Of a DNA stretch of 52,064 nt, positions 92 to 2,703 are shown piece after piece. Every line of letters starts with the position of its first letter. Position 1 is the first letter of the stretch. The translations under genes and the position numbers were made by a program. The stretch is from NCBI GenBank assembly GCA_001770205.1, contig MEQL01000015.1, positions 1-52,064 of the forward strand. The letters run 5' to 3'. The notes under the pieces were generated by a model. The model saw nothing but the letters and a program-made list of their open reading frames with translations, had not been told where the DNA came from and searched no databases. This stretch comes from Bdellovibrionales bacterium RIFOXYD12_FULL_39_22 (lineage in GTDB: Bacteria > Bdellovibrionota > Bacteriovoracia > Bacteriovoracales > Bacteriovoracaceae).

Positions 92-270
92 GCTGAAATT
101 CTTCGTAAGCACATAAGTACAAAACGTAATTAGGCCATCGATAGTTTGCTGTCAAAAATACAGCTTTAACGTTCTAGTTTTAATGTTTATAATAAATTAG
201 CATAATTAATTTGCAAAATTGGCCAGTAGAATTAATCGTATCGTATTTCAAATTACGGAGTTTTATAGAT

Positions 271-1665
271 ATGAGATTGCACGGGAAAATAGGCACTAGA
301 GTTTTGAAAAAATTTGAAGGTTTTTCTTTTGTTGAAATCATGGTTGCCGTCGGACTTACTGGAATGATCTCATTAGGAACAGTTAAAATTATTGACATGA
401 TGAACAGAGGGCAAAAGAATTTAACTCAGCATGTGACAACAAATAGGCTTGATTTTGAAATTATGATGACATTGATGGATAAATCAGGCTGTGAATTGAC
501 AATGAATGGAATAACGCCACCCACGGTAACTGGCGACTCGTTAACCCTTGCCGATCACGGAATAATTGCTCGTGGTGATAGATTAATTACAACTACAGAT
601 TCTGCATTGCCACAAAATGTTCATGATTTTGCACAAGGTGGGATAATGATTCACGAGAGTACCTCTATCCTCAAGGACAGGGATTCAGACTCGTTAGCGC
701 CGGGAGATGGAATTCCAAATCACTACATGTTGAATTTGATGTTTAGAAAAAGGGCCTCGTCAGTTGGCGCAGACTCGATCCCTGTAAAAATCCCGCTATG
801 GGTAATTCAGGATAATGGTGTAGATGGAACAATAACTACATGTTTTACACAGGAAGATGCCTATGTACAGGCGGCATGCGCTTCGCTTTTGGGAACATTA
901 GAATACGGTTATTGCAAGCGATTGCAAATTTTTCAAAGTGGTGTACCTGTTCCGGCAATACCACCTGCTGACGATAATTATTCTATGAGCTTGTTTGGAA
1001 ATTTTTTTGTTAATGGAGAAGGTTCTGGGGCGGGCATAATTTTTCAGGATACTTTGGATGATACTGAGATTGATATAAGAGGTGGGGATTTTTCCGATAA
1101 TAAAATTGCAATGGCCTCAGATCGTATCGCAGGGCAGTTAGTACTTAATGCCGACAATAGTTTTGATTCCACAAAGGGTTATGCAAAATTATTCCTTCTC
1201 GGGAATGAAAGTGTTGAGCTTAGAGCACCTATTTATCATTTTAAATCATTAGATGGGGGGAATACATTTTTAACTGTTACTGATGGCCCTGCCGTTTTTA
1301 ACTATGGACTTACAATAGCTGCTGGTCAATCTATTGGTTTTGCCTCCGATAAATCACAAAAAAAAGAAATTAGTCCTTTGGTCAAAGTTTTAGAAAAAAT
1401 TGAAAAAATTAGCGGGGTAAGTTTTCGCTGGAAAGACTCAAATCAAAAGGATATTGGGGTGATTGCACAAGATATTGAAAAAGTATTTCCTGAATTAGTT
1501 GCCACAAATGGTGAAGATGGAAAACTTATGGTAAAATATCCTCAGCTATCTGCAGTCTCTATTCAGGCCATAAAAGAGCTTCATAAAGAAAATAGATATC
1601 TTCTACAAGAAGTTCAAAGCTTAAAAAAATATCTTTGTGATCGAGATGGGAAGTTTTGCAAGTAG
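271..1665 (+). CDS. Type IV prepilin-like N-terminus fused to a fibre body and a C-terminal peptidase S74 intramolecular chaperone domain
   Basis: KKFEG|FSFVEIMVAVGL class III signal with E5; C-terminal SDKSQKKEI...GVSFRWK...IGVIAQDIEKVFPELV...AIKEL plus coiled coil; ATG 271 has GGAG upstream (ORF track starts at TTG 211). Confidence 0.85.
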   Translation: MRLHGKIGTRVLKKFEGFSFVEIMVAVGLTGMISLGTVKIIDMMNRGQKNLTQHVTTNRLDFEIMMTLMDKSGCELTMNGITPPTVTGDSLTLADHGIIARGDRLITTTDSALPQNVHDFAQGGIMIHESTSILKDRDSDSLAPGDGIPNHYMLNLMFRKRASSVGADSIPVKIPLWVIQDNGVDGTITTCFTQEDAYVQAACASLLGTLEYGYCKRLQIFQSGVPVPAIPPADDNYSMSLFGNFFVNGEGSGAGIIFQDTLDDTEIDIRGGDFSDNKIAMASDRIAGQLVLNADNSFDSTKGYAKLFLLGNESVELRAPIYHFKSLDGGNTFLTVTDGPAVFNYGLTIAAGQSIGFASDKSQKKEISPLVKVLEKIEKISGVSFRWKDSNQKDIGVIAQDIEKVFPELVATNGEDGKLMVKYPQLSAVSIQAIKELHKENRYLLQEVQSLKKYLCDRDGKFCK

Positions 1666-2145: not shown

Positions 2146-2703
2146 ATGGCGTACTACTTAACAACGGCAAATATCCATGTTCCTCCAGCGACTTCAACAG
2201 TGGCCACAGCTGGAACAGGAAATGGTTTAGCGGTAACGGATGGAACTAATGTACCCGCGGGTAATTTTTCAGCAAACAAGGTTTTCAATGCTGTTTGGAA
2301 TGATGTTGCAGATTTTCAATTGTTGAATGACAAATTTATTCCAGGAAAGTGCTATGTCGATCACATAGAAGGTGCACGAATTGCATCACAGCGCTGTCAA
2401 ATGGGGGTAATTGGAATTGCCTCGGATACCTTTGGATATGGTGTCGGTTCAGGGGCAAATGAGAGTGAAGTTCCTATTGCGATTGCCGGTTGGGTTCTTG
2501 CTTTTGTAGATCAAGAATACCCATGTGGAACACCACTGACATGTAATGAGAACGGAGAATTGACAGAGATGTCGTTGGAAGAGAAAAGGGATTATCCAGA
2601 AAGAATAGTCGGTATATATAAAAAACCAGAACGCAATAAAGAGTTTGGGCCAAATAAGAATAAAATCCTGGTAAATGGGCGACACTGGGTTAAGGTCAAA
2701 TAA
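2146..2703 (+). CDS. Short Thr/Ala/Gly-rich segment fused to a peptidase G2-like autoproteolytic chaperone domain (185 aa)
   Basis: GGAG then ATG 2146; ANKVFNAVWNDVADF...GVIGIASDTFGYGVG...VPIAIAGWVLAFV resembles phage tail-spike C-terminal NAVWNDYAE domains. Confidence 0.65.
   Translation: MAYYLTTANIHVPPATSTVATAGTGNGLAVTDGTNVPAGNFSANKVFNAVWNDVADFQLLNDKFIPGKCYVDHIEGARIASQRCQMGVIGIASDTFGYGVGSGANESEVPIAIAGWVLAFVDQEYPCGTPLTCNENGELTEMSLEEKRDYPERIVGIYKKPERNKEFGPNKNKILVNGRHWVKVK

Follow-up and report, generated by a model that had tools for sequence, protein, structure and literature searches.

In the 52,064-nucleotide stretch of contig MEQL01000015.1 analysed here (the window), from Bdellovibrionales bacterium RIFOXYD12_FULL_39_22, a gene on the forward strand at 271..1665 encodes a 464-amino acid (aa) protein that begins like a type IV prepilin and ends in a Peptidase_S74 chaperone domain. 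The open reading frame (ORF) is real and the observed pilin-S74 fusion is confirmed. With moderate confidence, the product is proposed to be a modular minor type IV pilin carrying an S74-matured trimeric fibre on a type IV filament, probably at the tip, where it would act as an adhesin. The source genome (G000; 3.95 Mb, 62 contigs, 94.6% complete) belongs to a lineage of Bdellovibrio-like predatory bacteria and, from this kinship, is presumably that of a predator itself. The gene would bear on how predatory bacteria recognise prey and on what their essential type IV pili bind.

The gene and its product

The ORF is intact over 464 codons from ATG 271 to the stop codon at 1663-1665. The same frame is open further 5′ to TTG 211, where a database copy of the protein (P0002, 484 aa) starts. 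Conservation is given below over alignment A4, which comprises P0001 and 114 matches no longer than 600 aa (another 33 exceed this length and are not in it). The matches come from 1.84 billion cluster representatives searched with a profile built on nine full-length members; of the best 150 matches, 147 of them new, nearly all span the whole profile or both of its ends. The AlphaFold2 (AF2) model was built with the 115-sequence alignment and has a mean predicted local distance difference test score (pLDDT) of 71; an earlier nine-sequence model had a mean of 49.8. The gene and the parts of its product are as follows.

271..1665, forward: modular pilin-like protein, 464 aa plus stop, ending in an S74 chaperone; metagenome contig L058 (132,645 bp) has an identical gene
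271..321, forward: class III (prepilin) leader, residues 1-17 ending in G17, with predicted PilD cleavage at G17|F18
322..504, forward: alpha-1 helix (residues 18-78) of the pilin module, carrying E22 (+5) and C74; AF2 helices 20-69 and 71-78
505..849, forward: pilin-like head, a predicted four-stranded antiparallel sheet (residues 125-193) ending at C191; AF2 strands 125-135, 150-160, 169-180 and 188-193
850..948, forward: small helix-hairpin module with C203 and C215, motif C..LxG......C, residues 194-216; C203 in 48/115 and C215 in 43/115
949..1344, forward: Pro-rich linker and variable fibre segment, residues 227-358, presumed to be the trimeric part left after cleavage
1345..1662, forward: S74 intramolecular chaperone (Pfam 359-410), long C-terminal helix 423-458 and C456...C463 tail, with predicted self-cleavage at A358|S359

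The S74 chaperone domain

The S74 half of the fusion is beyond doubt. Peptidase_S74 (PF13884; cut-off 22 bits) covers residues 359-410, scoring 55.3 bits (E 8.4e-15) on the protein and 59.6 when the genome is scanned, and matches all 115 sequences of A4. The S-D-x-x-x-K motif is formed by S359-D360-K361-S362-Q363-K364 in the context ...GFA|SDKSQKKEI, and S359, D360 and K364 are invariant throughout the alignment. The model is confident here, with pLDDT above 90 over residues 361-460 and block means of 81-98 over 350-464, and its fold matches solved chaperones: MyRF (7dc3, Z 9.6, root mean square deviation 2.6 over 119 residues), the T5 fibre (4uw8, Z 6.9), K1F endosialidase (3gw6, Z 6.7) and the GA-1 appendage (3gud, Z 6.6). 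Foldseek likewise pairs the S74 part with 7dc3 (E 7e-6), a PDB profile search finds the long tail fibre of phage S16 (6f45, E 1.6e-18), and the C-terminal part finds matches in 38 PHROG families of tail fibres and baseplates.

The prepilin leader and the pilin-like head

At its N-terminus, MRLHGKIGTRVLKKFEG|FSFVEIMVAVGLTGMISLG, the product has a short basic leader that ends in Gly, then Phe at +1, Glu at +5 and about 20 hydrophobic residues; the motif itself, G17|FSFVE22, comes after a basic stretch of 16 residues. Glu at +5 is required for the filament assembly of pilins and not for their anchoring. It is kept as E22 in 93 of the 115 aligned sequences, with Gln at this position in 10 more, while G17 occurs in 108 and F18 in 79. 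E22 is invariant among the 13 N-domains of alignment A5. A G-[FMILV..]-x-x-x-[EQ] motif lies within the first 70 residues of 126 of the 147 profile-search sequences (Glu in 114, Gln in 12), behind leaders of 4-25 aa. Conservation across the family supports a class III motif in the 464-aa protein.

Profile matches to this region are more modest. Pfam N_methyl (PF07963; cut-off 21.2 bits) matches residues 13-37, reaching 15.7 bits (E 0.012) on the protein and 20.1 when the genome is scanned, and is found at E<=0.01 in 76 of the 115 sequences of A4. It exceeds the cut-off in a paralogue encoded by the same genome (23.0 bits) and in one orthologue (23.3 bits). TIGR02532 matches 11 of the 13 N-domains, and on the 464-aa protein NCBIfam gives weak matches only, to the N-termini of prepilin-peptidase-dependent proteins, ComGE and GspJ. 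For the N-domain the model predicts a ~50-residue helix and then a sheet of four strands (pLDDT 70-94), with block means of 85-94 over residues 21-80 and 69-90 over the sheet residues 125-193. Pilins and pseudopilins, including GspK, S. sanguinis PilA, PilE, PilA4 and EpsI, are among its weak fold matches, and Foldseek with the N-domain gave no pilin match. It is thus the motif and the evidence from the family that argue for the pilin half.

An earlier note on this DNA, made from the letters alone, had described both ends of the protein: a G|FSFVE class III signal and a C-terminal S74 domain with Ser and Lys retained. Both are present, at residues 17-22 and at S359/K364, and the conservation just given agrees with them. 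The Pfam scan that it proposed returned Peptidase_S74 well above its cut-off and N_methyl below. The count of paralogues, which it also suggested, gives exactly two S74 matches in the genome scan, both on pilin-like proteins. The second is the paralogue mentioned above, a 373-aa ORF with the leader ...SNG|FTLIEIL.

L039 9764-10885 (contig C31 of G000), reverse: paralogous pilin-S74 gene, from ORF and Pfam match

A 675-aa ORF lies 10 nt downstream of this paralogue and is followed by a 1393-aa ORF (L039 2623-9754); neither has a Pfam match.

A variable middle between conserved ends

Between the pilin-like head and the S74 domain lie a Pro-rich linker (VPVPAIPPADD) and a segment that varies strongly within the family. 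Block occupancy in A4 falls to 0.11-0.50 over residues 221-340, and the matches to two PHROG tail-fibre profiles start as early as residues 245 and 262. The pattern is clearest in three syntenic Halobacteriovorax-type orthologues, where the first 60 aa are 63-93% identical and the last ~120 aligned positions (columns 511 onwards) are 90-100% identical, and most of the stretch between is 5-50% identical, with indels. Because the ends are conserved and the middle is hypervariable, this mosaic suggests that the binding part is exchanged by recombination.

The cysteines are co-conserved in pairs, 74/191, 203/215 and 456/463. Of the 115 sequences, 112 have C74, 113 have C191 and 49 have the pair 456/463. 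Three Cys pairs fit a protein that would fold outside the cytoplasm.

Family and distribution

The fusion is conserved in a sizeable family, and it is therefore not an artefact of assembly or frame. Counted only from rows that cover the whole profile, with four candidates scored per genome and hence as a lower bound, it occurs in at least 14 of 100 sampled genomes of its own family besides G000 and in at least one of 53 genomes of a second family, within a 401-genome sample of the phylum. Counts at E<=1e-30 (1823 representatives; 108 of 401 genomes) include S74-only proteins and do not give the size of the fusion family. In a word-based search, most of the 177 matches share the S74 part only, and the prepilin motif is present in five of the 119 non-self proteins listed. 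A single-protein search of genome contigs found no related locus, and a search with a two-sequence alignment found two Halobacteriovorax genomes with full-length ORFs. Full-length ORFs were located in five related genomes (L034, L035, L036, L037 and L038). The named full-length relatives, from two genome records and five of 20 protein clusters looked up, are all Halobacteriovorax or Bacteriovorax. Database names for relatives are 'tail fiber domain-containing protein', 'prepilin-type cleavage/methylation N-terminal domain protein', 'Peptidase S74 domain-containing protein' and 'pseudopilin PulG', each covering one end of the protein and never both.

The same pilin-like head also occurs with repeat-rich or Cys-rich C-termini other than S74 (L020, L021, L024, L027, L028, L030 and L033); therefore the head and the S74 end behave as separate modules. 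Four of these proteins (L020, L021, L024 and L030; 585-599 aa) have the same prepilin leader, head and C..LGG..C module and end in stretches rich in beta-helix-like repeats, a parallel to the non-S74 members of the mosaic adhesive trimer (MAT) fibres of Bdellovibrio. On contig C45 of G000 (L056 9229-11198), three tandem short pilin-like genes of 234, 220 and 196 aa have the same head and no S74 domain; their neighbours encode Cys-rich, secreted-looking proteins and a coiled-coil protein of 1245 aa. Genome G024 (L037 8731-12956) has two tandem pilin-S74 genes, of 391 and 667 aa, the longer with a Cys-rich insert, next to a flagellin gene.

Related genomes also encode S74 proteins of 1133-1825 aa, which resemble Bdellovibrio MAT fibres. 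As judged by eye, the three with complete N-termini all have ordinary signal-like hydrophobic N-termini and no prepilin motif. The 'YLCxKD...C' tail of the 464-aa protein is common to two of the four S74 C-termini seen in long proteins; a fifth stretch has no S74 ORF.

Genomic context and the conserved neighbour

The window starts 270 nt before the gene and opens with the tail of a 5S rRNA gene (1-54), whose terminator is a strong hairpin and T-run at 56-98 (-19.1 kcal/mol, z -5.3). Contig L058 shows a complete rRNA operon (16S, tRNA, 23S, 5S) upstream of the gene, which explains why the contig of the window breaks here. The features around the gene are the following.

166..193, forward: candidate promoter-like site TTAACG-16-TATAAT, 10/12 matches, ~78 nt 5′ of the start codon
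257..260, forward: ribosome-binding site GGAG, 10 nt 5′ of ATG 271, from sequence
2146..2703, forward: Peptidase_G2-like neighbour of 185 aa, resembling autoproteolytic chaperone domains of the phi29 pre-neck appendage type

Promoter-like sites across the region are not above shuffled sequence (six found, 7.0 expected). A 127-aa ORF on the reverse strand (1672-2055) lies between the pilin-S74 gene and the 185-aa neighbour; its N-terminus, MERRSFLTTLFAAAIAG, looks like a twin-arginine signal, and tblastn found no copy of it in the other fetched loci. Downstream, a glycan-type island (2704-22959) is unusually dense in radical-SAM genes, with eight of them, and also has PIG-L, glycosyltransferase family 2 (GT2) and polysaccharide deacetylase genes, two epimerase-family genes and a split transketolase-like pair. 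Pilin-S74 orthologues in L034, L035, L040 and L041 also adjoin a set of epimerase, deacetylase, radical SAM, PIG-L and DegT genes. The filament machinery of G000 comprises a Peptidase_A24 prepilin peptidase (57.7 bits) and matches to 15 N_methyl proteins, five secretins and 10 T2SSE ATPases on at least three clusters.

The 185-aa protein belongs to an unusually conserved family (55-71% identity among 19 aligned relatives) and shares 60% identity with the ORF of G032 located immediately after the pilin-S74 gene. Its gene is single-copy in 11 of 101 genomes of the family, including G000. In seven of the 11 (G000, G032, G179, G379, G419, G261 and G435) its immediate same-strand neighbour is a prepilin-S74 ORF. 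The distance is 17 kb in G013 and G015, within the same glycan island, and 29 kb in G243, and in G365 no pilin ORF is found within the 1.5-kb flanks. For several database relatives, the longest contig has the same length as that of a pilin-S74 protein (19661, 165843, 21733 and 1718533), which suggests that these too are linked to pilin-S74 genes.

Pfam gives no match for the 185-aa protein even at E<=10. Three leads agree on a Peptidase_G2-type domain: the name Peptidase_G2 on one UniRef member of the family, Atlas feature neighbours (17 of 30 in the Peptidase_G2 set, at 0.97, 0.97 and 0.96), and a non-significant PDB profile match to phi29 gp12 (6qz9, residues 687-743, E 0.34). The neighbour probably takes part with the pilin-S74 fibre.

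Proposed function

According to the proposed mechanism, the class III leader would be removed after G17 by the genome's own prepilin peptidase, and the N-terminal helix with the small pilin head would admit the protein to a type IV filament. Once in the periplasm, the C-terminal S74 domain would gather three chains, fold the preceding variable segment into a phage-type trimeric fibre and, by the chemistry known for the family, cut itself off at A358|S359 through an S359/K364 dyad. The outcome would be a homotrimeric pilin cap. The flexible Pro-rich linker could let three heads occupy the first helical positions, so that they start or cap the filament and the fibre projects outward from the tip of the pilus to serve as an adhesin. 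Since the lineage consists of predatory Bacteriovorax/Halobacteriovorax-like bacteria, the likely ligand would be a prey surface structure. We infer trimerisation, self-cleavage, PilD processing and pilus location alike. A bolder proposal, and a doubtful one, is that the pilin-S74 fibre and the Peptidase_G2-like protein form a two-gene module building an exchangeable three-fold prey-recognition tip on predator type IV pili. If true, the module would join type IV pili and MAT-type trimeric fibres, the two systems known to be important for prey attachment and entry.

Several observations weigh against a pilus-tip fibre. The N_methyl match of the 464-aa protein is below the cut-off, as it is in all but two of seven related ORFs scanned, and the pilin and pseudopilin fold matches (nine of 50 rows, Z 3.2-4.6) are so weak that the tool rates such Z scores uninformative. 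The fibre segment has pLDDT below 50 in the monomer AF2 model (residues 231-338 and 340-344), and residues 225-359 have no relative among PDB sequences, only noise at E 0.5. A three-fold symmetric trimer does not match the helical symmetry of a pilus unless the linker is flexible. The gene is also an orphan, with no pilus-assembly or other pilin gene adjacent in the annotated loci (window, L034-L039). As for the neighbour, inspection by eye shows no obvious signal peptide in the 185-aa protein, a poor fit to a periplasmic partner.

The earlier note had inferred that a pilus or pseudopilus displays a trimeric fibre of phage type at its tip. This is still the best reading, a plausible one that is supported in part. 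What has lost force is the paradox that the note raised between pilins, which assemble as monomers, and S74 domains, which make trimers. The available text of a 2021 survey of modular pilins (PMC8179133) describes the minor pilins CofB and TcpB as tip-located homotrimers.

The carrier of the fibre need not be a surface pilus. The protein could belong to a type II secretion-like pseudopilus or another type IV filament, acting in the envelope or as an extruded cargo-like tip. The several filament systems counted in the genome would allow this, one database source calls a relative 'pseudopilin PulG', and NCBIfam gives weak pseudopilin matches at the N-terminus (GspH in eight, GspJ in two and GspI in two of the 13 N-domains). 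Those matches, however, span only the common N-terminal helix, no type II secretion genes are adjacent in the window or in L034-L039, and a hypervariable middle suits a surface-exposed part better than a periplasmic one; this alternative is judged unlikely. A similarly small chance is given to the view that the class III signal serves merely as an inner-membrane anchor or export route, the trimeric fibre staying membrane-anchored or being released and never polymerising. The orphan position of the gene and the weak pilin fold match of its N-domain would agree with this, and the long S74 fibres of related genomes, with their ordinary signal-like N-termini, show that pilin-less fibres exist in the lineage. 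Against it stands the retention of Glu at +5, which a filament subunit needs for assembly (Gln in some members), and of the whole pilin-like head with its conserved Cys pair (112-113 of 115).

Two further explanations concern the S74 end. That the domain is a working peptidase, displayed by the pilus to cleave other proteins, is how the 2021 survey reads the architecture, which its available text places under 'peptidase activity'. We regard this as very improbable. As in phage fibres, the catalytic Ser, which is the domain's first residue, stands where a fibre-like segment ends; after self-cleavage the S74 domain would leave the pilin; and a study of Bdellovibrio fibres (PMC10769870), in the text available, treats S74 as a self-cleaving chaperone/protease domain that ensures trimerisation. 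Hardly credible, finally, is the idea that the gene is the remnant of a prophage or tailocin tail fibre behind a pilin-like leader, with no cellular role. The PHROG tail-fibre and baseplate matches and a neighbour resembling phage Peptidase_G2 proteins would suit it, but the frame is intact, the catalytic residues are invariant, and many genera conserve both the architecture and the gene pair. A prophage origin was rejected because the window holds no other phage genes.

Comparison with known systems

The architecture is not new: it is already catalogued, though uncharacterised, and the 464-aa protein adds another member. In the InterPro survey of modular pilins by Raynaud et al. (2021, PNAS; PMC8179133), Dataset S1 lists the combination IPR012902-IPR030392 (N_methyl and Peptidase S74) with 29 proteins and IPR012902-IPR008640-IPR030392 with four. 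The order of parts is the same as here, a class III signal and pilin module followed by S74, and the 464-aa protein fits the definition of a modular pilin, an N-terminal pilin module joined to an extra module that is not specific to pilus biology. The available text of the survey comments on this module solely as a predicted S74 peptidase and proposes that modular pilins in general are tip-exposed. Unlike the present account, it has no occurrence of Bdellovibrio-like predators and mentions neither a variable fibre segment nor a conserved neighbour. No study of the pilin-S74 fusion was found in the open-access literature. Added here are the predator lineage, an S74 tail common with MAT-like fibres, the pattern of conserved ends and variable middle, and the conserved G2-like neighbour.

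The MAT fibres of Bdellovibrio bacteriovorus (Caulton et al. 2024, Nat Microbiol; PMC10769870) comprise S74 and non-S74 types, and the S74 type is found on the predator surface, with self-cleavage proven for Bd3182. They are S74-terminated trimers of a predatory lineage with an SDxxxK motif and variable tips, and the S74 end of the 464-aa protein is similar. Their N-termini differ: MATs have a Sec signal and a ~130-aa beta-rich domain that is conserved, whereas the 464-aa protein has a prepilin leader, a 50-residue helix and a sheet, and is much shorter. According to the available text, what anchors MATs is not known, while their interplay with type IV pili 'may also be of interest'; the word 'pilin' does not occur in it. 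If the reading proposed here is true, a pilin-based fibre would be a simple answer to the anchor question for at least one class of fibre.

Phage S74 fibres and spikes (3gw6, 4uw8, 3gud, 6f45) and eukaryotic MyRF (7dc3) have the same domain, with the same Ser/Lys positions and the same C-terminal place. Phage fibres attach by a virion-binding domain, while the 464-aa protein would attach by its pilin module and is chromosomal, with no phage context. PilY1/PilC of type IVa pili does an analogous job as a large adhesin at the pilus tip (PMC8179133, in the available text). PilY1 is, however, a non-pilin that docks on the minor-pilin complex via a beta-propeller, and the 464-aa protein has no such domain in Pfam.

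The working model here follows the type IVb minor pilins CofB of enterotoxigenic Escherichia coli (ETEC) CFA/III and TcpB of the Vibrio cholerae toxin-coregulated pilus (TCP), in which, as far as the available text of the survey describes them, a pilin module is followed by a flexible linker and C-terminal beta domains and the protein sits as a homotrimer at the tip. TcpB/CofB clusters are Atlas feature neighbours of the N-domain at 0.81, a lead only. Unlike these proteins, the 464-aa protein has neither CofB_pilin_dom nor CofB_C (Pfam, E<=1), and its short leader is type IVa-like. Trimerisation would here use a removable S74 chaperone, which CofB and TcpB lack. If the proposal is true, a pilus can be capped by a chaperone-matured pilin homotrimer, which would be a second and mechanistically distinct homotrimeric pilin cap after CofB/TcpB, one assembled by a chaperone that is then removed.

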